Origin: an uncultured Eubacteriales bacterium
GTDB taxonomy: Bacteria > Bacillota > Clostridia > Lachnospirales > CAG-274
Assembly: GCA_949738935.1 (NCBI GenBank)
Contig: CATJCJ010000307.1
Location: forward strand, 33,753 to 97,752
Direction of reading: 5' to 3'
Length of the DNA: 64,000 bases
The notes beneath the pieces were generated by a model. The model saw only the letters and a list, made by a program, of their open reading frames with translations, was not told the DNA's origin and did not search any database. A program made the translations under genes and the position numbers. Below are positions 4,201-64,000 of the stretch, piece after piece. Each line of letters begins with the position of its first letter. The stretch's first letter is position 1.

Positions 4201-6073
4201 TAAGAATATTTTGTATGACAGAACCCTTAGCCCAAATCAATTATATTTCTATTATTTGAGAGCTATGAGGGTTGTTGACGGAAAGCCCGTCTCTTATTCT
4301 ATTTGGGTGCCTCTTTCCGTTACGACAACTCCTGTTGAGAATCCTTATAATCTTAAGGTTGAGAGGAATGTTAAACATGATAAGGAATATCAGGCTGTTA
4401 TAAGCTTTGATACTCCGTATTTTGATATATCTCTCCTCGGCACCGAATATGAACTTCAGTACGCTATTAAAAAAGATACGGATTTATGGGGCGAACCCAT
4501 TACTATGAACCCTGAGAATCTTAAGTCAAGCCATTCTGAAAACCCTGACGGAACATTACATTTTGTTTATACAGTGAGCGGGCTTGAGCAGGGACAACTA
4601 TATTTCCTGAAGGTTAGAATACTTAACAAAACTCTTAACGAGGCATCTATTTATTCTAATGTTGTTCAGACAAGAACAAATGTTGACCAAGTTGACCAGG
4701 ATAAGAAAGAGGAAATTGAGGGTTGGATTGACAGGTATAAAGAACTTCTTGAGGAGCTTCTTGATGACCCTTATTGGATTCTTGAGGATACTACGGCTAA
4801 TACTGTTGTGTACTATAGACCTCAGCATTTTGGAAATGTTATAAATGAGTCCACGGGAGGGGTTATTAATCTCGCTGTGGGAGAATATGGGGCGAAGAAA
4901 GTTTATTATATTCCCGCGACCGCTGTTAAACAGGCTTATGACGCTAACAAAGGATTTAAGGTAAGCTGGAAAGACGCTGATGTTATTGTTGGGGCGAGGG
5001 CTGTTGACCCGGCTCTTAATCAGGCTATCAGGCAGGTTCTCGACAGAATTGATTATAACAATGTTGAAGACTATTTTGTTAAATTGACGGCTTATTTTAA
5101 TCCGGTTTCTTATACTATTGATGGGGTTGAGCCATTGAGTCCTATTATTAACGTTCAGGTTGACGCTGTTGGTGTTGATGAGGATATACTTGAGTGGGAT
5201 AACGACAGGCTTGATGATATTATTGAATGGATTGCGGACCAGATTGAGGAAGATTATGACGATATTGTTGATGAGATAGAAGATTCTGATAAGGATGAGG
5301 AAATGGTTAAATATATTAAAGACCTTGTTGAGGACTTTAATGATGATGTGTATGAGGAGTTTCTTGACGACCTTGACGACATAGTTGATAGAACTTATGC
5401 ATCAGATGAACTTGAGTCCAGCATTATTATCGCTTATCCTGCAAATCAGGGAACTAATGTATCCGCTAAAAGACAGGTTAACGGAGTTTGGACGGGTGTT
5501 TCTGTTTCTGACTATATGGGTAAAAAAGCTGTTTATACTAAAAATCCGGGTACTTATGTGTTTATTGGCAGGGCTGTGATTATTCCCGGCATTTCTGAGA
5601 TTCCAAATGGGCAGGTTATCACAAATATTGTCGCTAAATATGGACTTGAGGATTTTCTTGGAAAAGGTACGGCTCTTAATGTTAACGCTCCTCTTACCAG
5701 AAACGCCGCTCTTAATTGTTCGGCGAGAATCGCGGGCGCTCCTCAAACGGCTGACCCTATTGTTTTCTTTAGCTCTAAAGGAGTTAATCTTCTTGTTAAG
5801 AGCAAAGAGGGCAACTCTACAAATCAAGAGGGTGTTTATTTGGCTATGACGGCTTATTTGACAAGAACAAACTCGAAGCTTGAGGCTGTTCAGATTAGAA
5901 ATTTTGCCGCCACAAGCGGAATTAATGGTATACAGCCTATTTATAAAAAGAGTATTCAGGCCGCTTTTGAGACCGGGATTTATACTAACTCCGGAATGAA
6001 CCCTTCCGGAATTATGACAATAAAAGATTATTTACAAATGCTTGGCAATATGTCCGCCAAAGCTAATCTTTAA
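1229..6073 (+). CDS. giant secreted cell-surface protein (1614 aa) with Fn3-like repeats, an acidic helical segment and an SLH-like C-terminus
   Basis: N-terminal signal peptide (MKTIMAKLLSFVFLLNTLICGASFQNTFA/AD) preceded by a GGAGG RBS. Fn3-like blocks include 'PENFDKDEINLNSVKLLWDRV...' and 'NQLYFYYLRAMRVVDGKPVSYSIWVPLSVTT'. A D/E-rich segment (DEDILEWDNDRLDDIIEWIADQIEEDYDDIVDEIEDSDKDEE) is present. The C-terminal ~170 aa have weak SLH-like signatures (PLTRNAALNCSARIAG; IMTIKDYLQMLGNM). Confidence 0.85.
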   Translation: MKTIMAKLLSFVFLLNTLICGASFQNTFAADAFNFQWNKESILDNGLNIVGKSNNYEDVFLWWDLGKRNGGNFDKGTYTLSYNIQDGKRVDFIVEKSAANAVVEYKVFDYAKNDYISVADTLFQVYSDTQGMYVSPTADNFPNVSENYGIVYGTDGKPAGKSAKFNITQSTGFAFKFDNKTVKFQWVKGSDNDVMYFVTDGVTQGNIFDFNLDLDIDGEPKYSNALQVFTGINASSFSSTPYANNRKNEIDHTTRPYIDDDPGSEPVELVLSVDMPKTWDDTFKKFVYTDPSAVSNLDKASLILNLGHNDDKKKIQVTIDDIYAADINSGVSCSTAGGGTATAERNDDNTAVLINIKNLQPGVIYNPVEVSLYKPNNSSFLADSTHIDHGVVYTFPVYTLEALSADQYYLKIQPFEGYKGYYTVYSGATAGTLSSWAEVEDSKGGTDPIYVPVNINAVNKQTQFFRVEFAFTPPDSTPGTSQRRLTSQILKYTPFESDVVISTPGNFKVLSAEIVPSIEGATTENQLIMDLQWDMAYENVLKNLVSNNGGAIDVFYDFNRGNVPYDENELKFSQIKLHITLNGDVIDIEPSVVEGDAEIEKFEWDSYEVLIGTTRQTVIRPIVTFRLPTAPKADNNQMFLYPNVYFLNFGGHYMDNTTYVTIPDSLYDDVTLDDAVDYDVPQPQNVRVITTGDLAVGKTSFTVDWDTFDIDDRNSSIYQYRVKMLNSRRFDFNDESIKFNAYITQDKSAFDKLIQLDKDRDSITDTFAGIIKEHDFENKRADVGVDASVLKDSDGNILRDDLRNNNIVKISNIMHAPDLEKQILPFTGLDKNQAYYVVLETVVIPYDTEKEIYLPDEEDISSYSAIVTATTLPDEDVPGPESNYPEAPENFDKDEINLNSVKLLWDRVIDSEEYPNSSIEYQFIRINGKQMEENIRASRKPYEETWNDVKSDVSIAGWQTKNDSIYRFDGTHFSSAPAEEGAFNYSTSDPVKNILYDRTLSPNQLYFYYLRAMRVVDGKPVSYSIWVPLSVTTTPVENPYNLKVERNVKHDKEYQAVISFDTPYFDISLLGTEYELQYAIKKDTDLWGEPITMNPENLKSSHSENPDGTLHFVYTVSGLEQGQLYFLKVRILNKTLNEASIYSNVVQTRTNVDQVDQDKKEEIEGWIDRYKELLEELLDDPYWILEDTTANTVVYYRPQHFGNVINESTGGVINLAVGEYGAKKVYYIPATAVKQAYDANKGFKVSWKDADVIVGARAVDPALNQAIRQVLDRIDYNNVEDYFVKLTAYFNPVSYTIDGVEPLSPIINVQVDAVGVDEDILEWDNDRLDDIIEWIADQIEEDYDDIVDEIEDSDKDEEMVKYIKDLVEDFNDDVYEEFLDDLDDIVDRTYASDELESSIIIAYPANQGTNVSAKRQVNGVWTGVSVSDYMGKKAVYTKNPGTYVFIGRAVIIPGISEIPNGQVITNIVAKYGLEDFLGKGTALNVNAPLTRNAALNCSARIAGAPQTADPIVFFSSKGVNLLVKSKEGNSTNQEGVYLAMTAYLTRTNSKLEAVQIRNFAATSGINGIQPIYKKSIQAAFETGIYTNSGMNPSGIMTIKDYLQMLGNMSAKANL

Positions 6074-6084
6074 GGAGGAGTTTT

Positions 6085-9000
6085 ATGAGAAAAACCAGAC
6101 TTAAGAGATTTATTTCTCTTTTGATTTCATTTGTTATATCTGTTTCCTGTATTACTCTTAACTTTGAGAGCGTTTTCGCTAACCTTCAAACCCACGTTAG
6201 AGCACTTAATATCAGAGTTATGCCATCGACGGGAAATGTATGTAATATTAACTTATCTTGGACAAATCCTCAGTGGTCTACAGCGGCTGATAATAACGCC
6301 ACTAATGGACAGGATATTCATGAGCCTGAGGGATTTAGGGTTATGGAAAGAAATTTGACTAAAGGGGATACAAATTTTACAAATGTCTCCGGCGATATGG
6401 AGGGCGGTAATCTTAATACCGCCACTATCGCTAGAAATCTGATTACGGGCAGTCTCTATTTGTATAGAGTTATTCCTTTCCATAAACATAGTTATTTTAG
6501 AGACGATAATACTTTGGATATTTTGGAGGCGCCTTATGACAGCTCCTCTCCTGAGGAAGTTTTGTTTATGTCTGACCTTCAGGTTAACGCCAGTGGTTCC
6601 GGAAATAATCTTACAGTTACTTGGGATAATCCTATGTTTAATAACAGAGATATTTTTTCCGGATATAGAATTTATTATCAAAGAGGCGGAACAAGTGTTA
6701 CAAATTTTAATAATTATAAAGACGTTAGTATTGATAATGAGGACCTTGTAAGGTCTAATGATGATATTAGAGAGGGTGTCTCAAGGCTTACTTATACTTT
6801 TTATGACGCTTCTCTCGCTCAGAGTGAAATATACGCGGTTAAGGTTGAACCTTTGTACAAAGGCTCTGAGATTAGAAAACTTACTAATTTGAGCTACGCC
6901 GAAATTATGATTAATGATACTAACTATAAAATAGGTTTTAACGCTTACGGAACAAATGAGTATAGAACTAACGACGCTTATATCGCTGTTCCTCTTGAGA
7001 TTCTTGAAAATGGAAAGGACTATCTTAATCTTCATTGGTGGGGACTTTCAAACACTATGGGAAATATTGAGAGAATAGAGGTCTATAGAGGTCCGTCTGA
7101 AGATGATATCGGAGTTAAAATCGGTACTATTATGTCAACACAGGCTGTTTATGTTAATTATTGGCAGATTGATAAGCCTACAGATATAACGTATTATCAG
7201 CTTAGGATTTTTATTGAGGGTATGGAAGTTCCGGTTACTTCGGAAATAGCCGTATATGACCCTAATATTGTGAATATTACCCCTAATAAACCCAGATTGT
7301 TCGCTGAGGTTAATCAAACAGAAACCAGAAACACTATTGACGCTTATTGGACTGTTTTTATGAGATATCCTTATACAGATAGTGAAAGTGAGTTTGCCGG
7401 ACCTGATGGCATGTATATTGATACTAACGTTAAGTATGATTTGTGGGTTACTGATAGTCTCGCTAATCTCCAAGACCCTAATCTGCCTAAAATACTTGAT
7501 TCGGTTACGCCGGCTCAGCTTACTCAGGAAACTCTTGAGGGTGTGAGTTCGCCTGTATATCATAGCCCCGTTACAACATATGTGACCAGAGACTCGCAAG
7601 GCGGGTACGCTACTGTGGATTTGGTTCAAAATAAGGTTTATTACTTTAAATTGGTTGTTTCTAAGCCTGTTCCTTTAGGTAATGACCTTACGGCGCAGCC
7701 GGCTTACGCGTCTCAATATTTTCCCGCTTTGGGAAATATCGCTACACCTCAGTCCCTCAATAAACCTCCTCTTAAAATAAGACAGGACGAAGAGGGAAAC
7801 GATATGATTACAAACAACTCTATTGAGGTGGAATGGAGAACACTTTGGTATGAGGTTTATGATGATAAAACTGATTCGTGGTATTCCAGAGCTTCTGTTG
7901 ATAACTCGGTTGTTCATTTTGGTGATGAGACAACAACTTCAGGCGCTATTGATTTTTGTAATCAGACTAGTCCTGAAAGGGTTAGAGATGTCTTTAAAAA
8001 CGCGGGTCTTTCTGAGGATGACGCTAATCTTCTTCCTATAAGACAGGTGAATTTGAACGAGAGTGACATAAAATATGAGATGCTGTATCTTCCATATAAA
8101 GAAATCTCTGAAATTGACGGAGGGTATGAGAAGTATCTTGAGCAAATTATGCAGGGCGAGGACGCCGGCTGGCAGGAAATTACTCCTAACTTTATTTCTG
8201 ATACGACTGCCGCTTATAATATTGTAGGGTTGGATAAAAATACCACTTACGCTATTATTATAAGACCTTACAGAATTGTTAACGGCGGGCAGAAAGACGC
8301 TTATCCCGCTTATATTATGGGTACAACTTTGCCTGATGATGTTCCTATTGTGATAACTCCTACGGTTCCTGTTTTAGAGGAAGATGCTGTTGATGATATG
8401 TCTATTACCGTTAAATGGAAGACAGATGAGAATCTTCAGTATGAACTTGTGTATAGTCTTGATTTGCTTGATGACCCTTCTTCCGGTAATATTATTAATA
8501 TGGAGGAAATTATTAAAAACGGTGAGATAAAAACAGAAGAGGATGTTAAAAAGCTTTTTTATAGAATAAGAGGACTTATGCCTGAGACAGGTTATTATAT
8601 ATGGATTAGGGCGAATGCCCCGAATGACGGAAATCCTATCTATTCCGCTTGGTCAAGTCCAATCTATGTAATTACATCTCCTCTTGGAAAGCCTGATATT
8701 CCTGATGGTCTTGGTCTTATCGCCAAGAATACATTGAATATTTTAAACAGGGGAAATAATACAAATTATTCTCAGCGCGCGGGAGATTATGTTATTCTTG
8801 AGTGGAACAGAAATGAGGATGACCTTGGGGAATCTCCGGCTGCCGCTGTTGCCGGCGAGAGTTATGAGGTTTTCGCTCATCCCGATGTTCAGGCGACAAT
8901 CGCGGTGAAATTAAATAAACTTGTGGCTAATACTGATTATTACGCCAGAGTTAAGGCAAGAGTTAATGTTACTGTCGGCAATGACGGTTCGAGAGAAAAA

Positions 9001-10368
9001 CATTTTACTTATATTTTGCAGTTTTCTCCAAACAGGGATTTTAAAGACGCTTTGACTATTGTTATTCCTGAAGGGCCGGCTGATATTGAGGAGGATTCTT
9101 TTACAAAAGAGTCTGACTGGAGTTCTCCCGTGAGAATTAAAGCCGGTAAAACTCCTGATGAGTATGACGGGGATATAGTGGATTCTCATTATCCTTTGCC
9201 TGATGATGACTTTGAGTATATATACGATGGTTTTACAAATACTTTGACTTATCGTTTTCGCTCTGATAAAGAGGATATGGACGGTCTTGACGACAACTTT
9301 GTTGACCAGAGATTTATCTCTACTCTGCTTAATAAGCAGCTTTATGAGTTTGAGGTGGATTTGACTTATTATAATAATTATACAATTAAAAACAGGGTTA
9401 TTGAAATTCCTTATTCTATTATGGAGGCTTTTGGGGAACACGATATTACTCTCTATTTTAAGGCCGATAATGTTACATTTGGTTTTTCTCCCGATTTTGT
9501 GAGAACAAATGAGATTAACAGTCTTCCCGGATATGGAAGAGGCGCTTCCGTTAAGATTACGGCCGCCGCTAATCCCTCTGGCATACCTTTGATTGGGTAT
9601 GGACAGACATATATATCACCGGCGCAAAAGCTCTCTGTTGATATTGTTACTCCTGAAAGAACGGTTAATTTGAAACAGTTCTATAAGCCTGTATCTGTTG
9701 GTATTAAGCTTAATGACAAGTATAGTTTTCAAGAAACAAATGTCGGAGCCTACTATGATACGGATTTGACAACGGAATGGCAGAGATATGATAGTTTTTA
9801 TGACGAGATTACAGGTACGTTTATCGGAAATACTAAAAATCCGGCTTCTTTTTCAGCGATAAGAAAAGCCGCTCCGAATATAGCCAGTAATGACGCTGAC
9901 GCTGTTAACGCTCTTGTCGCTATAAACAGCAGAATTGCCATTACCGATATGAAAAGCGTTAAACCTAACGCGCCTGTCTCCACAGTTCAGTTTAATAATG
10001 TCGTTTCAGCTGTCGCTAAGGGAAGTAAGGATGTTGCTGTTAACGGTGCTTTGCCTGATGAGGATTATAAGGCTCTCTCAAGGAAAGGTATGGTTATGAC
10101 TACTCCTACCGTGTCAAGAGAAGAGGGTATTAATATTCTTGTAAGGCTTTATGAGACGAAAACAGGAAGAAAGGCGACTTATACTCCGCTTAATCTTACG
10201 CTTTATACTGATATCTCAGACGCTGAACAGAAATATCAGGTGGCTCTTCTTAAAGCGGGTGACCTCGGTTTCTATGGAAACACATATGGCGCCAGACCGA
10301 AAGATACAATGAGTCTCGCTGACTTATTATATATGGTTGATATTATTATTAGAGACAGTAATTTATAA
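6085..10368 (+). CDS. giant secreted cell-surface protein (1427 aa) with Fn3-like repeats and an SLH-like C-terminus
   Basis: It starts 11 nt after the previous stop, behind an AAGGAGG RBS. It has a signal peptide/TM (FISLLISFVISVSCITLNFESVFA). Fn3-like blocks include 'SITVKWKTDENLQYELVY...ETGYYIWIRANAPNDGNPIYSAWSSPIYVITSP' and 'NTTYAIIIRPYR'. The C-terminus has SLH-like segments (VSREEGINILVRLYE; MSLADLLYMVDIII). Confidence 0.85.
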   Translation: MRKTRLKRFISLLISFVISVSCITLNFESVFANLQTHVRALNIRVMPSTGNVCNINLSWTNPQWSTAADNNATNGQDIHEPEGFRVMERNLTKGDTNFTNVSGDMEGGNLNTATIARNLITGSLYLYRVIPFHKHSYFRDDNTLDILEAPYDSSSPEEVLFMSDLQVNASGSGNNLTVTWDNPMFNNRDIFSGYRIYYQRGGTSVTNFNNYKDVSIDNEDLVRSNDDIREGVSRLTYTFYDASLAQSEIYAVKVEPLYKGSEIRKLTNLSYAEIMINDTNYKIGFNAYGTNEYRTNDAYIAVPLEILENGKDYLNLHWWGLSNTMGNIERIEVYRGPSEDDIGVKIGTIMSTQAVYVNYWQIDKPTDITYYQLRIFIEGMEVPVTSEIAVYDPNIVNITPNKPRLFAEVNQTETRNTIDAYWTVFMRYPYTDSESEFAGPDGMYIDTNVKYDLWVTDSLANLQDPNLPKILDSVTPAQLTQETLEGVSSPVYHSPVTTYVTRDSQGGYATVDLVQNKVYYFKLVVSKPVPLGNDLTAQPAYASQYFPALGNIATPQSLNKPPLKIRQDEEGNDMITNNSIEVEWRTLWYEVYDDKTDSWYSRASVDNSVVHFGDETTTSGAIDFCNQTSPERVRDVFKNAGLSEDDANLLPIRQVNLNESDIKYEMLYLPYKEISEIDGGYEKYLEQIMQGEDAGWQEITPNFISDTTAAYNIVGLDKNTTYAIIIRPYRIVNGGQKDAYPAYIMGTTLPDDVPIVITPTVPVLEEDAVDDMSITVKWKTDENLQYELVYSLDLLDDPSSGNIINMEEIIKNGEIKTEEDVKKLFYRIRGLMPETGYYIWIRANAPNDGNPIYSAWSSPIYVITSPLGKPDIPDGLGLIAKNTLNILNRGNNTNYSQRAGDYVILEWNRNEDDLGESPAAAVAGESYEVFAHPDVQATIAVKLNKLVANTDYYARVKARVNVTVGNDGSREKHFTYILQFSPNRDFKDALTIVIPEGPADIEEDSFTKESDWSSPVRIKAGKTPDEYDGDIVDSHYPLPDDDFEYIYDGFTNTLTYRFRSDKEDMDGLDDNFVDQRFISTLLNKQLYEFEVDLTYYNNYTIKNRVIEIPYSIMEAFGEHDITLYFKADNVTFGFSPDFVRTNEINSLPGYGRGASVKITAAANPSGIPLIGYGQTYISPAQKLSVDIVTPERTVNLKQFYKPVSVGIKLNDKYSFQETNVGAYYDTDLTTEWQRYDSFYDEITGTFIGNTKNPASFSAIRKAAPNIASNDADAVNALVAINSRIAITDMKSVKPNAPVSTVQFNNVVSAVAKGSKDVAVNGALPDEDYKALSRKGMVMTTPTVSREEGINILVRLYETKTGRKATYTPLNLTLYTDISDAEQKYQVALLKAGDLGFYGNTYGARPKDTMSLADLLYMVDIIIRDSNL

Positions 10369-53988: not shown

Positions 53989-54264
53989 TTATCCACATAA
54001 AATTGAATTTGAAATAGGCTTGAAAAGCGTTATCAACAAAGTTATCAACATATCCACTGTTAATAAGTTATGAATAATTAACAATATTGTTGAAATATTG
54101 TAGAATAAATGTGAAAAAAATGTGAAAAAAATGTTTATAAGTCAGTTTTGGACAAAAAACACAATATATTGTGCGAAACTTAGATTTGTTTGCGGATATA
54201 TAGTATATTTTTTCATAAAATGGCTGTGGATTTAAAAAAGTTATCCACATAAAATTGTGGATAA
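53989..54264. promoter_or_regulatory. DnaA-box cluster flanking an AT-rich tract
   Basis: Perfect TTATCCACA boxes at 53989-53997 and 54241-54249, plus an inverted one (TGTGGATAA) at 54256-54264. One-mismatch TTATCAACA boxes at 54030-54038 and 54042-54050. Weaker boxes at 54051-54057 and 54225-54233. The intervening sequence is very AT-rich and includes AAATGTGAAAAAAATGTGAAAAAAATG. Confidence 0.7.
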
Positions 54265-55003: not shown

Positions 55004-55636
55004 TTATATAATAAGACGTCCTTTTGATACAAAATAATAATATCCATAAGAAGTAGAAGCGATACGACAAGCTTCAATAACCTTGATTTCTCCCTGATTT
55101 TTCTTGTCTATATAAAAAAAACTTTCCAAATATCGTAAATTATCACTGCTCAAATCTTTAATCGGAAAAATATCAAAATATCCGTCAGACGAATCCACTC
55201 TGTAAAAAAATTTATTTTTATCATCAGCCTTTAAATCTTCCATAACTTTATCTCCGCTGCTATAATTAAGTTTTGTTTTCAAAAACCTTCTGTCAATTTT
55301 TCCAAGATTAAAAAACTTGACATTTTCTTCTGTTTTCTCATTACTTATAACATTTTCCTCTATCTTTATTTTTCCGTCTCTAATCAAATGGGAATTATCT
55401 TTATTTTTTTTTAACTCTCTTATCTCAATTTTTATTTTTAAAAGTTCCTCTTCCCTGTCGCTTATAATTTTTTCTAATTCCTCTATTCTATTAGTAAGTA
55501 AATCAATTTGATTGTTTTTAAACTTTTCAAATTTTTCATCCATTCCTATTATTATTGAACCCACTATTTTTTTTATATCTTCACGAAAATAATCAAATAA
55601 TTCTTTTTTTATCTCTTCCGCGTCCTTTTCGTTCAA
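55004..55636 (-). CDS. coiled-coil protein whose C-terminal domain is shared with the 56070-56942 product
   Basis: TTG start 10 nt after GGAGG. The N-terminal half is heptad-like (LLTNRIEELEKIISDREEELLKIKIEIRELKK). The C-terminal ~90 aa (FFYRVDSSDGYFDIFPIKD...RYLESFFYIDKK...IEACRI...YGYYYFVSKGRLII) aligns with the C-terminus of the upstream membrane protein. Confidence 0.6.
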   Translation of the reverse strand: MNEKDAEEIKKELFDYFREDIKKIVGSIIIGMDEKFEKFKNNQIDLLTNRIEELEKIISDREEELLKIKIEIRELKKNKDNSHLIRDGKIKIEENVISNEKTEENVKFFNLGKIDRRFLKTKLNYSSGDKVMEDLKADDKNKFFYRVDSSDGYFDIFPIKDLSSDNLRYLESFFYIDKKNQGEIKVIEACRIASTSYGYYYFVSKGRLII

Positions 55637-55798
55637 ATCAATTCCGCCTCCTATAATAAGACAATAATAATATTCTCCTCAAATTCTTAAATGTATCAAA
55701 GCGTATCTAAAAAGTTTCTTAAAAGCACCAAAATTATATAAATAACAGATTTTTTTTAATATAAAAATTTGTTAAACTTGAGAAACATCAAAAAATCG

Positions 55799-55840
55799 AG
55801 TAGAAGGCAATTTTCTTGTCCTTCTACTCGTTCAAACTTA
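55799..55840 (-). terminator. intrinsic terminator ending the tubulin-like/actin-like operon
   Basis: The minus strand reads CGAGTAGAAGG-ACAAGAAAATTG-CCTTCTACTCG followed by ATTTTTT, about 230 nt downstream of the 56070 stop. Confidence 0.7.
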
Positions 55841-56069: not shown

Positions 56070-56942
56070 TTATTTAAAATAAACCGTACCCAATGAGATA
56101 ATATCATATTTGCCAAGCATACTTTCCTGTAATATACATGGCTCAACACTATTATCCTGTCCTTTTGCGACTTTAAAAAAGCTTACAGATAAATATCTTG
56201 ACCTCATTCTCTCATCAATAATAACATTTTTTGATGGATAAATCTCATATTTATTGTTTCCACAGTTTAAAGCATAAAATATACCGTTTGGCTTCTTTTC
56301 AAGTTGGTTTCCATATTCGCTAAAACTACATTCCGTCCCATTAAGCTCTTTAGGAAAATCTCCATGATTATTTAAATATAAATTATACTTTTCTTTAATA
56401 GTAAAATATTTAGCTGACTGTAAAGTGTCTAAATCTTTTCTATCAGCTTTTCCCGATTTTAAGTTTTCCTGTTCTTGTCTAAACGTGTTGTTTGACAAAT
56501 TAGATACATCTCTATCCATTCCATAAAACTTATCGTCGCTATCCTTTTTTAACTTGTCTAAATTATTTTCAATATAATCAATTTTATCTTTCAGCGTATC
56601 ATAATCTTTCTTAAGAGAATTAAAACTCACTCTCAGCTGTTTAAAATAATAACGATAATTATCACCAATTCTTCTGAGCATAATAAAAATAATCACAAGA
56701 AAAACAATTACAGCCGCTAACATTACACACAATACTGAAAAACTTATAATACCACTAACAGAATCAAATGAGAAAATAGGAGAAATAGCCGAGGATGTTG
56801 TGGAACTTTCAATTGCGACGGAACTTTCAATAAAGCTTTCAACCTCAGCGAAAGCTTTTTGAGTAAACATAGAGGATATTAAGCCTAATATGAAAATCAT
56901 TATCAAAATATTTTTTAAAACATTTTTTATATAAATACTCAT
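56070..56942 (-). CDS. bitopic membrane protein: signal/TM, second TM, coiled coil and the shared C-terminal domain
   Basis: ATG at 56942, 9 nt after GGAGG and 3 nt after the upstream TGA. It has N-terminal hydrophobic segment ILIMIFILGLISSMF..AFA and a second TM, FSVLCVMLAAVIVFLVIIFIML. The coiled coil reads LKKDYDTLKDKIDYIENNLDKLKKD. The C-terminal domain is IFYALNCGNNKYEIYPSKN...RYLSVSFFKVAKG...VEPCIL...GKYDIISLGTVYFK. Confidence 0.65.
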   Translation of the reverse strand: MSIYIKNVLKNILIMIFILGLISSMFTQKAFAEVESFIESSVAIESSTTSSAISPIFSFDSVSGIISFSVLCVMLAAVIVFLVIIFIMLRRIGDNYRYYFKQLRVSFNSLKKDYDTLKDKIDYIENNLDKLKKDSDDKFYGMDRDVSNLSNNTFRQEQENLKSGKADRKDLDTLQSAKYFTIKEKYNLYLNNHGDFPKELNGTECSFSEYGNQLEKKPNGIFYALNCGNNKYEIYPSKNVIIDERMRSRYLSVSFFKVAKGQDNSVEPCILQESMLGKYDIISLGTVYFK

Positions 56943-56944
56943 AA

Positions 56945-59900
56945 TCAAATACCTCCATTATTTCGTTTACCTCGTAAAATCTCTAAAATAGCCTGTATTC
57001 CAATAATAAATGAAGGATCAACTTTATGAGCGTTAGCGTTTAAGTTTACAATAACTTTCATTCCCTCATAAATATCAAGCCAATCATCAGCGTTTAAATC
57101 AATTATCATTTTCTTATCACCGTTAAATATTTTTCTATTAACAATATCGACAAACTTTTTAAGATTTTCAAGTTTAGGTGATATTTCAAAGGTATATTTT
57201 AAATTTTGCTCACCGCTGTCAGCGCTGAAATAATCAATATATTTTGAGTTTTCACTCAATTTAAGGTCATAATCAGGACCTATATCAAAGTCCTTGTTTT
57301 CATATCGGACAAAGACTTTTTCCCCGTTATACATTTTTTCCGTATTATCAAACTCAATATTGTCAATATCAATACGGCTTAATTTCAACAATCCTTTCGA
57401 CGCTTCCGTTTTAAGATTGTTTTCATTAAGCGGCTCAATATGAATATTTATTCCCAGTTCATCAGATAATACCTTTCGCATATTTGTAATATATCTTTCA
57501 CCAACCCAATTATACATCTTTGAGCCGTTTCCAGCAAAATACAAATTAATATCTCTTGAACCGCTCACACTATCCTTAACAAGCTCAAGTGATTTGACAG
57601 AATAATACATTATGCCAAAAAATCCAAGAACAAGCTCTTGTTTAAACGGAATAAGCTCGTCGTTATCTCTGCCGTCAACAAAAGATTTTATTTTATCGCC
57701 AAATTTAAATATAGCCGGTTCAATATCTGTTCTAAATCTTCTCATAATTCTATCTCTTCCGTCAAAGTTTCCGTTTATAGCCTTAATAGCCTCGTCTATA
57801 GCTCTTCCATATGTCGCTCTGTTAAGCTCGCTGATACTTTCCTGTAAAACTGTATAGCTTTCCTCGTTAGTATCGCTCATGATAAGCTCGGCAATAGAAG
57901 CTAGGAATATAAGCCTCGAAGCTATATTAACAGATACCTGTATAATATTTTTCGGAGTATTACCCTCAATAACTTTCCAAAATGAAATATCAGTTGAACC
58001 TCCACCAATATCTATACAGCCATAAAGCATACACCTCGATGATAACGCCTGCTCCTGAAAAAACTTAGCGGAAACAATACTTTCCGAACAATACTGGCTG
58101 CCGTTTGAGTTAAATATAAAAGCGTTTCTGTCGCAAGATTCCCTAAGAGAATCTATTACCGATTTTGTAATATTTTTAAACTCATCAAACGATTCCTGCC
58201 TTAAAGAAGTAGGATAAGAAAATTTCCATGTAAATTTACAAGCCTGCTTTTGATAAATAAGGGCGTATACAATATTTTTTATAATTTGGCTCAAATAAGC
58301 TTTTAGCGCTCGTTTGTTGTCAGCCGTAGTTCCCCATTTCATTTCAGTTTCAATACAATCGTTGGCGCTTAGCTCAATCTCATAATCAAAAATAACATTA
58401 CCTATAGAAAACAGATTCTTAGCGTCTGCTGTTTTTTTACTTGAGTTATTCTGATAAATACTCGGATACGCCTTTTGGTTATAATAACGATAAGGCAAAA
58501 AATACGCTATATTATCGTCTATGTAATTGGGATTATTATAAATAACCTTGAGGCCATTGTCATCCATTTTTCCAACGCAATCAACCGGCTCAAGAATTCC
58601 TCCCCTTTTTTCCCTAAATTCATAAAGTTTACCAAATTCAATAAATTCTGAATTTTCCCCAAAATTGTCGGTTGTGTAAAAAGCTACCGTTGAGGTTGTA
58701 CCAAAATCTATGGCTACATTATAAACAACTTCTGAATTTGGGTTTACAATAGTCTCATTAGGCTTTGGAAGTATAAAAGCTCCAAGCTCTACCCCGTTCG
58801 TTCCGTCAAGAGATACTTTTTTAAATATAATATGTGTCGGTACATCCTCACATTTATAAACCAATCGTTCTCTTTTATCTTTGCTGTACGCTAAATCCAA
58901 ATCAAAATTATTATCAGCTATTATATCCTCAACCATGATTTCCGCGATATATTTAAAATCCACACTCTGATTTGACGGCATAGCCTCATAAACATAATAC
59001 TCATTCCATAAGTTAGCACCTAAAATATTATTCTGCGCTTTAATTTTTTGATACGGCCAAATAAAAACAGAAGGTATATCAACGTCAAAAATATCAATTA
59101 TACTCTCACCTGAATACTCATGTTTAATATGTAGCTGTTTATATGTTCCTTTGCCGTTTACCTCTTTATAAATGGGAAACACAACATGAAATCTGTAAGT
59201 TCCGTCAACAATTTTCTCAAGTTTGATTTTTATTTTATCTTTATTTTCATCTGAGAAATTACCGCTGAGAATTTCATCAATTCTCACGTCATAATTAATG
59301 TTATATGGCTTAATACGCTCAAAAATATTATTTTTTATAGGCCATATAACATATTTCTCATATCCGCTGTCCTCGAAAGAATCGGTAAACTCTGAAACTT
59401 TCGTACCCGTAAAACAATTAATTAAACATAAATCATCAAGGAAAATATCATCCTCACTAAAAAATCCCGTATTAACATCCATTTTTATATTATTTCTGCT
59501 TAAAAACTCTTTAAGCTCCGTTGATAATTCCTCAACAACATATAAAGGCTTGTCACTTCTTCCCGTATAAACCTGAATTAAAGGTTTAACGGCGTCAACG
59601 TTTATATTTGGATAAATATACTCAAAAACCTCGCTTATTTTTGATACATTTCCATCAAAGTTAAATAAAAAATCAATGAACCTATTTTCATCAAGGCCCC
59701 GCGCTTTTAACAGTTCTTCTTCTCCCGCCTCAGAAATAGCTTTATCAAGGTCCTCAATAAAATCATTAATAAAACCACAGGCTAAAGTTATTAAGTTATT
59801 TTCCTCCAGAATATTTGTTCTTAAAATTCTTTCTATACATTCAAGCCACTTTCTCATGTATAAATATTGAATACTGTTCTTCGTTATAAAAGGAATAGGG

Positions 59901-60550
59901 TCAATAAAATCAATCCTTTTATTAATGGTTCCCATAATTTCCTTTTCACAGAGTATTTTAACAATATTTGAGCTATCATAAGAATACATGGGACATACAA
60001 GACCTGAATTTGATAAAACCCCAATATTTTGTGTCTCGCCCATATTCGCGCACTCTATAAAAACAAATTCGTCCCAGCAAGAACTATCGCCAAACAATTG
60101 GCTGTTTGGCTTTAAATAGATCAAATTTCTATAAAACTTATTAACATTATTCTCTGAATATTTAGCGCTTAAATCTACTTTATGAAAATTTATCTCCAAA
60201 TCAATAAAATCCTTTAAAGCGATAATAGTGAGTAGCCCTCTCCATTGATTAACAGCGTCCTCATGTAACTGCCCAAAATCATCGGAAACCATAATAGTGT
60301 CAAATGAAATAATAGAAGCCCATGGAGAAGGTACTGAAATTTCACTCCTGTTTTTTATTATCGTCTTAGCGCCGTTGTCAGACGTCTCAAGGTCGCTCGC
60401 TATATTTCTCAAAGTTGATACCGCGTTATAAGAACCGCCTCCGGCCTCTCCTAAGGAAGAGCCGTCTGTCACCGGATTAACGGCGAGATTTGGATTTTTC
60501 CCGTTTCTTAAAGCGTTACTTGTTATATAAGTAAATTTTTTCCCCGCCAT
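56945..60550 (-). CDS. giant (~1200 aa) protein: unknown N-terminal ~600 aa plus a C-terminal actin/Hsp70-superfamily ATPase-like domain
   Basis: Phosphate-1-like 'VAIDFGTTSTVAFY' (DFGTTSTV is encoded at 58685-58708). Phosphate-2-like 'CIDIGGGSTDISFW' (57983-58012). Adenosine-motif-like 'NLYFAGNGSKMYNW'. The ATG at 60550 overlaps the upstream stop (TAATG); the ORF-track start at 60574 is an alternative. Confidence 0.8.
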   Translation of the reverse strand: MAGKKFTYITSNALRNGKNPNLAVNPVTDGSSLGEAGGGSYNAVSTLRNIASDLETSDNGAKTIIKNRSEISVPSPWASIISFDTIMVSDDFGQLHEDAVNQWRGLLTIIALKDFIDLEINFHKVDLSAKYSENNVNKFYRNLIYLKPNSQLFGDSSCWDEFVFIECANMGETQNIGVLSNSGLVCPMYSYDSSNIVKILCEKEIMGTINKRIDFIDPIPFITKNSIQYLYMRKWLECIERILRTNILEENNLITLACGFINDFIEDLDKAISEAGEEELLKARGLDENRFIDFLFNFDGNVSKISEVFEYIYPNINVDAVKPLIQVYTGRSDKPLYVVEELSTELKEFLSRNNIKMDVNTGFFSEDDIFLDDLCLINCFTGTKVSEFTDSFEDSGYEKYVIWPIKNNIFERIKPYNINYDVRIDEILSGNFSDENKDKIKIKLEKIVDGTYRFHVVFPIYKEVNGKGTYKQLHIKHEYSGESIIDIFDVDIPSVFIWPYQKIKAQNNILGANLWNEYYVYEAMPSNQSVDFKYIAEIMVEDIIADNNFDLDLAYSKDKRERLVYKCEDVPTHIIFKKVSLDGTNGVELGAFILPKPNETIVNPNSEVVYNVAIDFGTTSTVAFYTTDNFGENSEFIEFGKLYEFREKRGGILEPVDCVGKMDDNGLKVIYNNPNYIDDNIAYFLPYRYYNQKAYPSIYQNNSSKKTADAKNLFSIGNVIFDYEIELSANDCIETEMKWGTTADNKRALKAYLSQIIKNIVYALIYQKQACKFTWKFSYPTSLRQESFDEFKNITKSVIDSLRESCDRNAFIFNSNGSQYCSESIVSAKFFQEQALSSRCMLYGCIDIGGGSTDISFWKVIEGNTPKNIIQVSVNIASRLIFLASIAELIMSDTNEESYTVLQESISELNRATYGRAIDEAIKAINGNFDGRDRIMRRFRTDIEPAIFKFGDKIKSFVDGRDNDELIPFKQELVLGFFGIMYYSVKSLELVKDSVSGSRDINLYFAGNGSKMYNWVGERYITNMRKVLSDELGINIHIEPLNENNLKTEASKGLLKLSRIDIDNIEFDNTEKMYNGEKVFVRYENKDFDIGPDYDLKLSENSKYIDYFSADSGEQNLKYTFEISPKLENLKKFVDIVNRKIFNGDKKMIIDLNADDWLDIYEGMKVIVNLNANAHKVDPSFIIGIQAILEILRGKRNNGGI

Positions 60551-62091
60551 TAATTCTCGACCTCTCTTCCGCATAATTCCATAACATCACGCATAAAAAC
60601 AGTAAACGTAGTCATACTGTCGGTTATGGGTTTAACCGTATTGGTAGCTAATTCCTCTATAATTCTCTGACCTGTATAACGCTTATTTTCGGATTCAGGA
60701 CTCTCATTAAAAACAACCGTGGCCATGTTTTCAAGTTCTCTAAATTTATATCCAGTAAAACCGCATGATACAGTCTCCGGATTATATAAATTTCCATACA
60801 TATCGCTGACGTTAAGCCATTTTACCTTACTGTTTATTTTGTAATCAAATATTCCCGAATCATCACGAATATTTCCTGAATCATTTGGTAGTATAAGCTG
60901 GCTCCAGATCCAAGACAAATATTCCTCACAGTAATCTTTTAAAATCACATTAAAATTATGGCTTTTCAAAAAATTTCTTCCATAAACAGACTCATAATTT
61001 TTAAGCCAGCCAATATTTTTTTTTCTGTTTTCAATCATATCGCTAAGAAGTTTTGTGTACAGACTTGAGAATAAAAAAAACGTTGACATTTTTCTCACTA
61101 TATTAGCGTTTTTAACAACATTATTTAAAGTTTCAGGAATTATATACTCATCAGCCTTTTGTTCAATAACATAAAATTTAGTCCTAAAAGTATCGTTTTT
61201 AGGAGCGACTAAAAAATCAAATAATGTGGCGGCGGCGTAAGTTTCTATATAATGAGGCTTATTTTTCTGCTCTCCCCCGCCCTCAGAATAAGGAACATTC
61301 ATAAAATTCTCCTCATTCTCACCAATAAAATACATAGTCCTGAATATATCGTCAAAACCCTGAGACTCATAAAATGATAAAGCCATTTTCACTTTTGAGT
61401 TAAATGTTCTCCAATTTATATTTAAAGAGGTTTTCTCTCCTTGTTTTCCGACAGGCCTAAAATATGGCATAACCAAAACCGCCCCAATAGGAACATCCTC
61501 TTTAATATTGTTCTTTATAATTCTGGCTATCGTAGGTATTCCCGAAGCTCCCGTCCCGCCGAAAACCGAGCCTACTATAAATATTTTATCTCCATCTCCG
61601 ATATGCTCAAAATATCTTTCCCAAACTTCTGAGAATTTGTGATTCTCACCTAAAATATTTAACGAAGTGAAATAAGAACCTATAGAAGTATGACCATAAA
61701 ATCCCTCGTTGAGTTTTTTGCTGAGTTCCTCTTTTGTATAAAGAAACTCAAGAACATTCTTAGCGTCGTCGTTTAAATTAAAATCCCCGATATGGCCTCT
61801 CATATCGTTATCATTTGAGTCCAAAGGCGACCAGTATAGCCCCCCGTCTTCCTTATAACAGCTCACAAGAGGCAGATCAGTAAGCTTTTGAAGAGCTTTG
61901 TACTTTGAGTATAAACTTCTGAGTCCGTTCATATCCCCGTTATTTCCATCAGAATCTATACACATAACCTTATAATTGTCAAATGATTTAATTCTCTCGT
62001 CATCAAACCCTCCCGAAGCCAAAAGGTGAAACAACGCTCTCATAACTCTTGTTCCGCTTCCTCCTATAGGAAGTATATAACAAGTACTCAT
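60550..62091 (-). CDS. divergent tubulin/FtsZ-superfamily GTPase-like protein (513 aa)
   Basis: T1-loop-like N-terminus 'CYILPIGGSGTRVMRAL'. G-box/T4-like 'KIFIVGSVFGGTGASGIPTIARII' (GGTGASG is encoded at 61540-61560), compared with the tubulin signature GGGTGSG and FtsZ GGGTGTG. A GGAGGGG RBS is present. Confidence 0.75.
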   Translation of the reverse strand: MSTCYILPIGGSGTRVMRALFHLLASGGFDDERIKSFDNYKVMCIDSDGNNGDMNGLRSLYSKYKALQKLTDLPLVSCYKEDGGLYWSPLDSNDNDMRGHIGDFNLNDDAKNVLEFLYTKEELSKKLNEGFYGHTSIGSYFTSLNILGENHKFSEVWERYFEHIGDGDKIFIVGSVFGGTGASGIPTIARIIKNNIKEDVPIGAVLVMPYFRPVGKQGEKTSLNINWRTFNSKVKMALSFYESQGFDDIFRTMYFIGENEENFMNVPYSEGGGEQKNKPHYIETYAAATLFDFLVAPKNDTFRTKFYVIEQKADEYIIPETLNNVVKNANIVRKMSTFFLFSSLYTKLLSDMIENRKKNIGWLKNYESVYGRNFLKSHNFNVILKDYCEEYLSWIWSQLILPNDSGNIRDDSGIFDYKINSKVKWLNVSDMYGNLYNPETVSCGFTGYKFRELENMATVVFNESPESENKRYTGQRIIEELATNTVKPITDSMTTFTVFMRDVMELCGREVEN

Positions 62092-62169: not shown

Positions 62170-62634
62170 TCAGCGGAAAGGAACAAAGTCCGAACGCCAA
62201 ATTTTCGAGCAAAAAACAGTAGAGAGAATAAACTCCGCTATTTGTTCAACTATAAATAAAACAAAAGAAATAGTCGAACATGAAGTGTCCTCCGGATTAA
62301 CTCTCAAAAATAAAATTGATAAAACGGCGCCTATAATAATCGCTAAAAATAAGTATATAATCCACGCTACGCTTGAACGAAAAAAAGCTCCGCAGTACAT
62401 AGAAAATATCATTATAATAAAATTAAAAACAAACGAGGCAATAGTCCCCCAAAAAAACCAATTAAAAAAAGAATTTCCCCAATCCTGAGGGGTATATAAT
62501 AAATCTTCAGGGTAAGACGCTCCCGAAAAATACAAAGAAATAAGAAACCCTATAAGCAAAAAACATATAGCCGTAATAAGAGAAACAACCAGTCCCGTCA
62601 ATGAACTCGACCAAGGATTTTTTCCTTTACCCAT
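62170..62634 (-). CDS. small integral membrane protein (4 predicted TM)
   Basis: Four hydrophobic helices (LVVSLITAICFLLIGFLISLYF; FFWGTIASFVFNFIIMIFSMY; VAWIIYLFLAIIIGAVLSILFL; ISFVLFIVEQIAEFILSTVF). A GGAGG RBS is present, with an 18-nt gap to the upstream gene. Confidence 0.65.
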   Translation of the reverse strand: MGKGKNPWSSSLTGLVVSLITAICFLLIGFLISLYFSGASYPEDLLYTPQDWGNSFFNWFFWGTIASFVFNFIIMIFSMYCGAFFRSSVAWIIYLFLAIIIGAVLSILFLRVNPEDTSCSTISFVLFIVEQIAEFILSTVFCSKIWRSDFVPFR

Positions 62635-62652: not shown

Positions 62653-64000
62653 TTATTCCGCGTCACTCGCTTTTCCCACATAAACTGAAAAAGTGTTTTG
62701 AGTAACGTTTCTATTAATTTGATAGCCGTAAATAGAATTAAACAACGTATCTAAATTTGAGATTTTATTCGTTCGGGACCATTCTTTAACCCACTTAGGC
62801 ATATTCTCTTTCGACATAAATTGTTTTACGTTAATATCAAGTTTAAAGAAATTTCCCTCCGATTTAGGAAATTCCGCGGCGTTGTCCATCATAAAATTAA
62901 AAAGCATAGAGTTGTTCTCATCGTCAACTCTCCATTTGCCTTGGTTTTCTCCACCCTCGGCAATCTGTACCTTAATAAAGTCCTCGGCGTTCGCTCCATA
63001 TTCCACCAGCTTGCCGTCTTTCGGAATATACATTTTTGTCTCAAGCTCACAATCTAATGAGCTTAATTTAACCTCGTCAATTATATTAAAAGGCACGTCA
63101 AGCTTAAATTTTCCGGCAAGCGTTTTATCGCCGTCTAAAACAAGCGACTTCATAGCGATATAGCTTATATCGTTTACGGTAATATTTTTCGCTTCCTCTT
63201 TCTTGTTTTCATCGGCATCACTTTTAGGTGGCATAACCTGAACATATCTGTTTGTTACAGACGCTCCGCCTACATCAGCGAAATTAACAGTACCCTCTAT
63301 GTATTTATATAAATCTTTTGAGTAATAATTATCATTTATCTCAGAAAAACTTCCCTCAGTCTCATTCGTGATAGTAAATGACGGAATTTGCTTAACAGTC
63401 CCGTCTTGTGTTTTTTCCTCTTTATATTCGTATAAATAATAAGTTCCATTCTCAATAGGTTTGATATCTTTATAATTAATCCCCATTATGCCGTTATCAT
63501 TAGCGAAAATCTGATAATTAATATTTCTGACTATATCTAACTGAAGTCCACCATCCGCCTGACCTCCCTCAGAATTTTCATAAGCCGCGACATTAGGATT
63601 CTGCTTAAAATTAGATATAAATTCCGACGTTTTTTTATTAGAGCCGACAACTACTATAAAAAAAGGCCTTACCTCGGTATCGACCCCAATAATGGCTACC
63701 GCTTGATTTTTAGCTAAAACACCGGTAATAGCTGAAACCATAGAAGTGTAATCGCCAAGCTGCGTTGTAAAATCCGTGACAATAACACTAAACTCATTTT
63801 CCTTTGTATTTTCTAAAACATCTTTAACAATACTATTCGATTTTCCAGAATAACTTTTCTCATTAATTATTTTTTTTACAAAAAAATCTCCGTCAAGCTT
63901 TTCTACTTCATCCTTCACCGAATGTATCTCAAAATTTAATGAATCGTTTGTACTAAGTTCATTCGCCGTACTATACGCGGCATATACAATATTTTTAAAA
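62653..64000 (-). CDS. large uncharacterised protein, 5'-truncated by the window edge (at least 449 aa visible)
   Basis: The minus-strand frame stays open from the GTG listed at 63918 up to position 63999 (...FKNIVYAAYSTANELSTNDSLNFEIHSVKDEVEK...), so the real start lies outside the window. The visible N-proximal part (SGKSNSIVKDVLENTKENEFSVIVTDFTTQLGDYTSM...VAIIGVD) is weakly vWA-like. The rest looks beta-rich. Confidence 0.7.
   Translation of the reverse strand, partial: FKNIVYAAYSTANELSTNDSLNFEIHSVKDEVEKLDGDFFVKKIINEKSYSGKSNSIVKDVLENTKENEFSVIVTDFTTQLGDYTSMVSAITGVLAKNQAVAIIGVDTEVRPFFIVVVGSNKKTSEFISNFKQNPNVAAYENSEGGQADGGLQLDIVRNINYQIFANDNGIMGINYKDIKPIENGTYYLYEYKEEKTQDGTVKQIPSFTITNETEGSFSEINDNYYSKDLYKYIEGTVNFADVGGASVTNRYVQVMPPKSDADENKKEEAKNITVNDISYIAMKSLVLDGDKTLAGKFKLDVPFNIIDEVKLSSLDCELETKMYIPKDGKLVEYGANAEDFIKVQIAEGGENQGKWRVDDENNSMLFNFMMDNAAEFPKSEGNFFKLDINVKQFMSKENMPKWVKEWSRTNKISNLDTLFNSIYGYQINRNVTQNTFSVYVGKASDAE

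Follow-up and report, generated by a model that had tools for sequence, protein, structure and literature searches.

The DNA analysed here (hereafter, the window) is a stretch of 64,000 nucleotides (nt) from an uncultured Eubacteriales bacterium (GenBank assembly GCA_949738935.1, contig CATJCJ010000307.1, positions 33,753 to 97,752 of the forward strand). On its minus strand lies a gene, here called D, for a large protein with a predicted ATPase core of the ASKHA (actin/Hsp70/sugar-kinase) superfamily. Among the loci examined, D is encoded directly after a gene for a tubulin-like protein, gene C, and in some lineages the two are fused. The two genes of the window are:

60550..62091, minus strand: gene C, a 513-amino-acid (aa) GTPase of the tubulin/FtsZ superfamily (Tubulin_2/FtsZl1-like, by Pfam), whose stop codon overlaps the start of D
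56945..60550, minus strand, stop codon included: gene D, 1201 aa, defined by the open reading frame (ORF) listing, the TAATG junction and homologue starts

An initial annotation of this DNA had placed gene D at 56945-60574. The ORF listing contains an uninterrupted minus-strand ORF with these limits, which gives 1209 aa from its first ATG; the end at 60574 is the coordinate of the longest ORF and probably not that of the gene. Translation most likely begins with the ATG at 60550, with a product of 1201 aa (56945..60550), because the TAA stop of C and this ATG share one base as TAATG (the DNA reads ...GAGAATTAATGGCGGGG; the junction, with the TAA stop of C and the ATG of D at 60550, is GAGAATTAATGGCG) and because the two closest homologues start with MAxKKF at the equivalent ATG. 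NCBI holds an identical protein from a Clostridiales metagenome-assembled genome (MAG) as a 'hypothetical protein'. The overlap with the tubulin-like gene had been described correctly. As a sequence feature it implies translational coupling of C and D and not proven stoichiometry, so the stoichiometric co-production read from it goes beyond what the overlap shows. It is restricted to the clade of the window, and C and D are separated by gaps of 4–80 nt at other loci.

The D protein of the window had no significant match in Pfam, NCBIfam, PADLOC or PHROGs (all PHROG matches were insignificant), and a phmmer search against all PDB sequences returned nothing, even at E ≤ 10. With the single protein and then with a 90-sequence profile as query, a word-indexed homologue search recovered no more than the same three close relatives. 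This type of search was insufficient, and the family became visible because an exhaustive HMMER search was used: with a three-sequence profile it detected 498 representative clusters at E ≤ 1e-3, 209 of them at E ≤ 1e-10, most being 1000–1200 aa long and matching along the whole length. All public names seen for members were 'hypothetical protein' or 'unknown protein', and no description of a tubulin-like/ASKHA module was found in the literature searched. Judged by sequence and modelled fold, D represents a large unnamed bacterial family that is new within a known superfamily.

In the structural models, D is a soluble protein of five parts, i.e., a disordered tail, a novel alpha/beta region, beta-sandwiches, the ASKHA core and a C-terminal domain. 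The core, its motifs and the domain that follows were located as below; residue numbers refer to the 1201-aa protein, motif coordinates were verified by translation, and conservation was measured on an alignment of 90 relatives with a mean column identity of 18%.

57365..58735, minus strand: ASKHA (actin/Hsp70-type) ATPase core, aa 606-1062, from the model, Foldseek and the profile search against PDB sequences
58685..58717, minus strand: phosphate-1 motif VAIDFGTTSTV, aa 612-622, with D615 and G617 invariant
58058..58090, minus strand: connect-1 motif CSESIVSAKFF, aa 821-831, with E823 invariant and corresponding to DnaK E171 (hhalign)
57980..58015, minus strand: phosphate-2 motif IDIGGGSTDISF, aa 846-857, with D847, G849 and D854 invariant; D847 and D854 correspond to DnaK D194 and D201
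57512..57541, minus strand: adenosine motif YFAGNGSKMY, aa 1004-1013, with G1007 invariant and G1009 at least 90% conserved
57386..57415, minus strand: connect-2-like motif LKTEASKGLL, aa 1046-1055, with K1047 and E1049 invariant, and G1053 and L1054 at least 90% conserved
56948..57364, minus strand: conserved C-terminal domain, aa 1063-1201, of short strands and helices, with a predicted local distance difference test (pLDDT) score >90 except in the last block (71)

The three nucleotide-binding motifs quoted in the initial annotation (phosphate 1, phosphate 2 and adenosine) were found verbatim and in the expected order, with gaps of 223 and 146 aa where about 225 and 150 had been claimed. With connect 1 and connect 2, all five ASKHA motifs are present in order and their key residues are invariant, including the aspartates of the DxGTT and DxGGG signatures. 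Invariant positions across the alignment include, among others, D615, G617, K738, W739, P780, E823, D847, G849, D854, S873, G1007, K1047 and E1049. At the connect-2-like motif the family consensus is PKxEAAxGL, which resembles NPDEAVAxGA of Hsp70, a likeness read from the consensus by inspection and without an alignment. The C-terminal domain has the family consensus AGExF...EPxFIxxLKxLL.

An AlphaFold2 model of aa 575-1201, built from 83 aligned sequences, reached a pLDDT of 92.2 and a predicted template modelling (pTM) score of 0.92, and showed the two-lobed, duplicated RNase-H-like ASKHA fold around these motifs. Foldseek matched the core model to 493 PDB chains at E ≤ 0.001, and the top 30 matches were nucleotide-binding domains (NBDs) of the Hsp70 family (template modelling (TM) scores of 0.50–0.57, normalised to the target), the best being the DnaK NBD 5obw (E 5.5e-9, probability 1.00). 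MreB 8azg followed the Hsp70 NBDs in the ranking (E 2e-7, probability 1.0). The ASKHA core proposed in the initial annotation was thus recovered as a fold. When the family profile was aligned with authentic E. coli DnaK by hhalign, E823, D847 and D854 fell on DnaK E171, D194 and D201, and the family segments FSYPTAF...ES.A.A..YF...CIDIGGGTSDIS were paired with ITVPAYF...NEPTAAALAYG...VYDLGGGTFDIS of DnaK. Searches with sequence profiles gave a different ranking. The full family profile matched PDB sequences of the actin family (3.9e-5), MreB (9e-5), FtsA (7e-4) and DnaK (6e-3), all within the ASKHA part, and a Pfam scan of 44 relatives gave sub-threshold matches to MreB_Mbl in 28 (best E 1.4e-7), FtsA in 16, SrfB in four and HSP70 in none. 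From sequence and model together, we assign the core to the Hsp70/actin branch of the ASKHA superfamily, with the catalytic motif set intact, and it is not assignable to Hsp70, MreB, FtsA or SrfB. D is predicted to be an active enzyme because the catalytic-type residues are invariant across relatives of ~20% identity.

The half of the protein that precedes the core was divided as follows, with its boundaries and those of the neighbouring domains read from secondary-structure strings:

60341..60550, minus strand: low-confidence tail, probably disordered, aa 1-70 (pLDDT 44–68 over the first seven 10-residue blocks)
59243..60340, minus strand: conserved mixed alpha/beta region of unrecognised fold, aa 71-436 (pLDDT mostly >90)
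58736..59242, minus strand: all-beta region, apparently two sandwich-like domains, aa 437-605 (DSSP strands between 440 and 593)

AlphaFold2 modelled aa 1-600 from 90 sequences with a pLDDT of 86.5 and a pTM of 0.81. The family carries the motif SIPDxWAR...EWRGLLAxxALK, which in the window reads SPWASIISFD (aa 75-84) ... NQWRGLLTIIALKDF (aa 101-115). Residues P74, W77, W103, A111, P148, W159, P218 and W235 are at least 90% conserved, and P404, P499, W515 and G590 are invariant. As the initial annotation had stated, this half holds no recognisable motif: it had no match in Pfam, NCBIfam, PADLOC or PDB sequences, and Foldseek returned nothing at E < 0.001 from the PDB or the viral BFVD. Its best Foldseek matches were antibody Fab light chains (TM score ~0.23), which covered the beta part only and which, on the model, reflect a generic Ig-like sandwich at aa ~437-605. 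Conservation and modelling indicate that the N-terminal half is a real, conserved set of domains of an unrecognised fold class and no spacer. The ASKHA core does lie behind a region of ~600 aa, as had been claimed; a recent fusion of two halves is not what the family suggests, since the architecture of 1000–1200 aa is kept throughout. A subgroup of clusters (P0033, P0035, P0036, P0037 and P0048; ~1260–1320 aa; locus L010) has an extra ~70–130 residues after about residue 250, and their match to the family profile is split in two.

The assignment of the neighbouring gene C to the tubulin-like proteins was borne out by Pfam Tubulin_2, which matched all six C orthologues tested (E ≤ 0.01). For C of the window the score was marginal (27.9 bits, cut-off 27), and the Tubulin model remained under its cut-off (24.3 bits). 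The nucleotide loops GG.G (T1) and GS.FGGTGASG.P (T4, of the GGTGSG type) are invariant in C, and matches to CetZ and FtsZ in the PDB were weak and fell on the signature loop. Six clusters of the D family are C-D fusions of 1633–1758 aa (P0040, encoded at 4253-9361 of locus L009, and P0044, P0046, P0047, P0050 and P0051). In these proteins the C profile aligns with residues 1 to ~450/500 (E 1e-55 to 1e-74) and the full D profile with residues ~530-1700 (E 1e-125 to 1e-188); a separate C gene was absent from the locus fetched for one fusion. That C and D work as one unit, as physical partners, is strongly supported because natural tubulin-ASKHA fusion proteins exist. At locus L009, a gene for a small lipoprotein with a weak match to a transglutaminase core overlaps the start of gene A, described below.

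To place the pair in its genomic context, we compared 11 distinct loci, from Clostridiales MAGs, metagenomes, a plasmid of the Picosynechococcus group and a MAG of the Pyrinomonadaceae (Acidobacteriota), with D members from 100% down to ~20% identity. All 11 had the same gene order, i.e., A (~450–600 aa), B (~155–180 aa), the tubulin-like C (~500–535 aa) and D. A pattern scan of the genome collection added one partial locus, L003, among the matches listed. The remaining features around the pair in the window are:

62653..64000, minus strand: gene A, an exported lipoprotein of unrecognised fold, cut by the window edge (513 aa at full length in a sister genome, L013)
62170..62634, minus strand: gene B, a 154-aa membrane protein with about four transmembrane segments (hydropathy scan)
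56070..56942, minus strand: gene E, a bitopic membrane protein of ~290 aa with a signal-like N-terminus, one strong transmembrane segment, a coiled coil and a C-terminal domain in common with F
55004..55636, minus strand: gene F, a 210-aa soluble coiled-coil protein without a transmembrane segment, a paralogue of the cytoplasmic part of E (BLASTP, jackhmmer)
55797..55830, minus strand: terminator-like hairpin with U-run, downstream of E (direct folding)

A is exported, B and E are membrane proteins, and C and D are soluble. A has a signal sequence, with a lipobox cysteine at six of nine loci, and its N-terminal ~200 aa are homologous across all module variants. The A lipoproteins share the pattern D.T.SM.G ... 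SVIITDL ... AIIGV, which resembles the MIDAS of vWA domains (DxTxS...TD); a vWA assignment was set aside, being a pattern only that neither Pfam nor the PDB profile search confirmed. B has 3–5 transmembrane segments across loci and occupies the same position in L001, L004, L010 and L013. From one variant to another, homology is detectable for A, C and D, and the rates of divergence between loci are similar for all four genes A–D. The Walker A pattern was absent from B, C and D in the nine loci scanned; two isolated matches occurred in A proteins, both exported lipoproteins without a GTPase family match. Gene E starts 2 nt past the stop of D. E and F are paralogues, one anchored in the membrane and the other soluble, and the pair is specific to the Clostridial clade (window, L001, L004 and L013); their shared coiled-coil and C-terminal regions align over ~170–195 aa by iterative search and ~70 aa by BLASTP. 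Folding of the window region 55785-55840, which includes the hairpin, gave a free energy of -20.4 kcal/mol (z -5.8; none of 200 shuffles was as stable). A consensus terminator scan found none after E, which we attribute to a hairpin loop exceeding the 8-nt limit of the scan.

At three distant loci the module ends with a MotA/ExbB-like gene followed by a MotB/ZorB-like gene (L005 10030-12748, L015 8474-10923 and L016 12317-14662), and these are apparently the variants of diderm bacteria. The MotA/ExbB-like protein has several transmembrane segments and a long coiled-coil tail (Pfam MotA_ExbB 16–21 bits, cut-off 22.9; ZorA1 best E 4.8e-6), and the MotB/ZorB-like protein is full-length with an OmpA domain (ZorB1 E 3.8e-18). 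A rhodanese-domain gene lies directly upstream of A at L013 (5119-6054), L014 (5119-6054) and L016 (3758-4135), in two module variants with only ~20% identity between their D proteins; this may be a coincidence or a loosely associated accessory. In the Pyrinomonadaceae MAG, a gene with a staphylococcal-nuclease domain (SNase; L015 241-900) is directly upstream of the module at this one locus; should the module act in defence, this gene could encode an effector.

The module is mobile accessory DNA, because each locus has different flanking genes, including loci whose proteins share a 90% cluster, cyanobacterial plasmids carry copies, and its GC content is lower than that of the rest of the window (0.323 vs 0.367). 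Between the module and a methyl-accepting-chemotaxis-like gene ending at 53951, a very AT-rich intergenic region holds five DnaA-box-like 9-mers within 276 bp (window 53989-54264; three perfect TTATCCACA and two with one mismatch). Across the 64 kb there were 31 such matches vs 18 expected, a count reached in none of 100 shuffles, and the GC skew switches sign near 54000. The region 53989-54264 could be a DnaA-box cluster or origin-like region, or a chance occurrence in AT-rich intergenic DNA.

Three published types of system share features with the module. The FtsZl1 operons of Makarova & Koonin 2010 (PMC2875224), as far as the available part of that source describes them, are alike in that C matches Tubulin_2 and in their membrane-associated neighbourhood, and some, in Deinococcus, include MotA/ExbB and OmpA genes, comparable to the diderm variants. 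The FtsZl1 proteins given in its supplements are 910–1136 aa and mostly paired with vWA proteins and P-loop GTPases, whereas C has ~505 aa and the module has no detected vWA domain and no convincing P-loop. On the size of C and the partner genes, within that part of the source, we rejected the module as a canonical FtsZl1 operon. The same part names no ASKHA partner for FtsZl1 (actin appears only in a general cytoskeleton context, and Hsp70 is not mentioned), and membrane remodelling is the role it proposes for these operons. The conflict systems of Kaur et al. 2020 (PMC7159879) are characterised by TRAFAC DO-GTPases (one or two) and GAP1, accompanied by FNIII and vWA proteins, and draw in tubulin homologues or HSP70-family proteins. 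The module resembles these systems in being rich in NTPases, membrane-proximal and built of a constant core with variable accessories, and differs in that its ASKHA protein is not a canonical HSP70. It was rejected as a DO-GTPase/GAP1 system on the lack of a convincing P-loop in the module; GAP1 was not searched with a model. Zorya is built on a proton-driven motor, ZorA5B2, whose tail passes the signal on to soluble partners (PMC11946911). The stator of L005, L015 and L016, coupled to soluble cytoplasmic partners, is similar, although the ZorA-like matches are weak and no phage-defence phenotype is known for the module. PADLOC matched none of the six genes of the window locus to ZorA or ZorB, and none of the Zorya effectors (ZorC/ZorD, ZorE and ZorF/ZorG) to A–F of the window or to the D relative P0054; with neither ZorAB nor Zor effectors, the window locus was rejected as Zorya.

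Taking these results together, we propose that D is the ATPase subunit of a conserved, horizontally mobile and membrane-associated four-gene module, A-B-C-D, and the partner of the tubulin-like C, a reading to which we give a probability of roughly 0.55. D would bind C directly, and the binding and hydrolysis of ATP in its ASKHA cleft may control the assembly state of a C polymer or its attachment to the membrane, by analogy with the action of actin-like FtsA on tubulin-like FtsZ. The novel N-terminal half could serve as an adaptor, and A, B and E (or the ZorAB/MotAB-like stator in diderm relatives) would link the C-D pair to the cell envelope. Several points weigh against this proposal. For no family member were data found on interactions, ATPase or GTPase activity, or polymerisation, and the adjacency of C and D is drawn from 11 loci and six fusion clusters, out of ~500 clusters. 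The window locus has no stator, and the link to Zorya-like motors rests on homology of the core genes only. No PADLOC defence model matches any core gene, and the core has no recognisable effector domain. Finally, the subclass of the ASKHA core is split, as structure ranks the Hsp70 NBD first and sequence profiles favour MreB and FtsA; therefore roles as a tether, a chaperone-like protein or a filament are not separable.

That split gives some ground to two other accounts of D. It might be a filament-forming bacterial actin of the MreB/ParM/FtsA type, forming a second cytomotive filament for which the N-terminal half would be a cargo or membrane adaptor. MreB_Mbl and FtsA are the closest Pfam families among the relatives, the actin-family, MreB and FtsA chains outrank DnaK in the profile search, MreB 8azg is among the Foldseek matches, and an ASKHA gene beside a tubulin-superfamily gene recalls ftsA/ftsZ. 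The sequence matches, however, cover only the neighbourhood of phosphate 2 and remain under gathering cut-offs (in the per-protein scan relatives score no more than 26.3 bits, where the cut-off is 27, and D of the window has no MreB_Mbl or FtsA match), and Foldseek places Hsp70 NBDs first. D is also three times longer than MreB or FtsA, and its tubulin-like gene precedes the ASKHA gene. We know of no precedent among actin-like polymers for a protein of 1200 aa in which 600 residues precede the core and 140 follow it. Nothing found for D points to polymerisation or to a membrane-targeting helix, and we regard a filament as rather unlikely. The 'fifth bacterial actin family', FcmB (PMC12645912), was considered as a relative and is unrelated, being derived from ParM.

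Somewhat less probable again is an Hsp70-like chaperone or remodeller whose client, clamped and then released, would be the tubulin-like protein or an effector. All of the top 30 structural matches of the core point this way, as do the invariant counterparts of DnaK E171, D194 and D201, the connect-2 consensus (by inspection) and the description by Kaur et al. 2020 (PMC7159879) of conflict systems that recruit tubulin or HSP70. In those systems, however, tubulin and canonical HSP70 (with GrpE and DnaJ) are non-overlapping themes and thus alternatives, and their defining components are P-loop DO-GTPases and GAP1, neither of which is present here within the search scope given above. D as a canonical Hsp70 was rejected because the HSP70 model (PF00012) matched neither D of the window, even at E ≤ 10 on the isolated half, nor any of the 44 relatives. 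D differs from DnaK in having 600 unrelated residues before the core and ~140 after it; no family model, substrate-binding or lid domains included, matches anything in the latter, and no DnaJ or GrpE domain was seen at any locus examined. SrfB (PF07520), a 'virulence factor' of ~1000 aa, is similar in size (the Pfam model has 992 positions) and has other genomic partners than D. D as SrfB was rejected, with no match for D of the window and relatives far under the cut-off (best E 0.017; one scored match had 11.1 bits vs a cut-off of 27.1, around phosphate 2). It is very improbable that D is some other ASKHA enzyme, such as a sugar or acyl kinase, a Ppx/GppA-type phosphatase or a reactivase, with a functionally unrelated tubulin-like neighbour. 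A few relatives weakly match EutA, Hydantoinase_A, Ppx-GppA and diol-dehydratase reactivase models, and exopolyphosphatase appeared at E 0.4–0.6 in the PDB-sequence profile search, but such matches are rarer and weaker than those to MreB and FtsA. Neither a kinase nor a phosphatase is among the 50 Foldseek matches listed, all of which are Hsp70-family NBDs or MreB, and the strict adjacency and natural fusion of C and D argue against independence.

For the module with D as the ATPase partner of C, the most likely biological role would be an envelope-triggered conflict or defence function, or membrane remodelling. More tentatively, and with considerable doubt, the module might form an undescribed class of envelope-coupled anti-phage system, in which a membrane sensor would trigger the C-D pair and the nucleotide-driven assembly of the pair would be the output. 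In diderms the sensor would be a proton-driven stator like that of Zorya, and in Firmicutes the lipoprotein with the four-transmembrane and bitopic coiled-coil proteins; the output would be a cytoskeletal effector instead of a nuclease or toxin.

Cytoskeletons stand on two pillars, the tubulin-like and the actin-like NTPases, and ftsA-ftsZ is, to our knowledge, the one well-understood bacterial case of the two acting together. The module described here is a new variant of tubulin-centred membrane modules and provides a second case in which a tubulin-like and an ASKHA protein are obligately paired; the pairing seems evolutionarily independent, occurs in several phyla, is mobile and is sometimes made as one polypeptide of 1700 aa. 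It adds a new ASKHA family with a confidently modelled region of 360 aa to which no solved or viral structure is analogous. The module also gives the poorly understood FtsZl1-like tubulins a concrete partner, and its stator-bearing variants offer a link, open to testing, from envelope motors of the Zorya type to cytoskeletal proteins.

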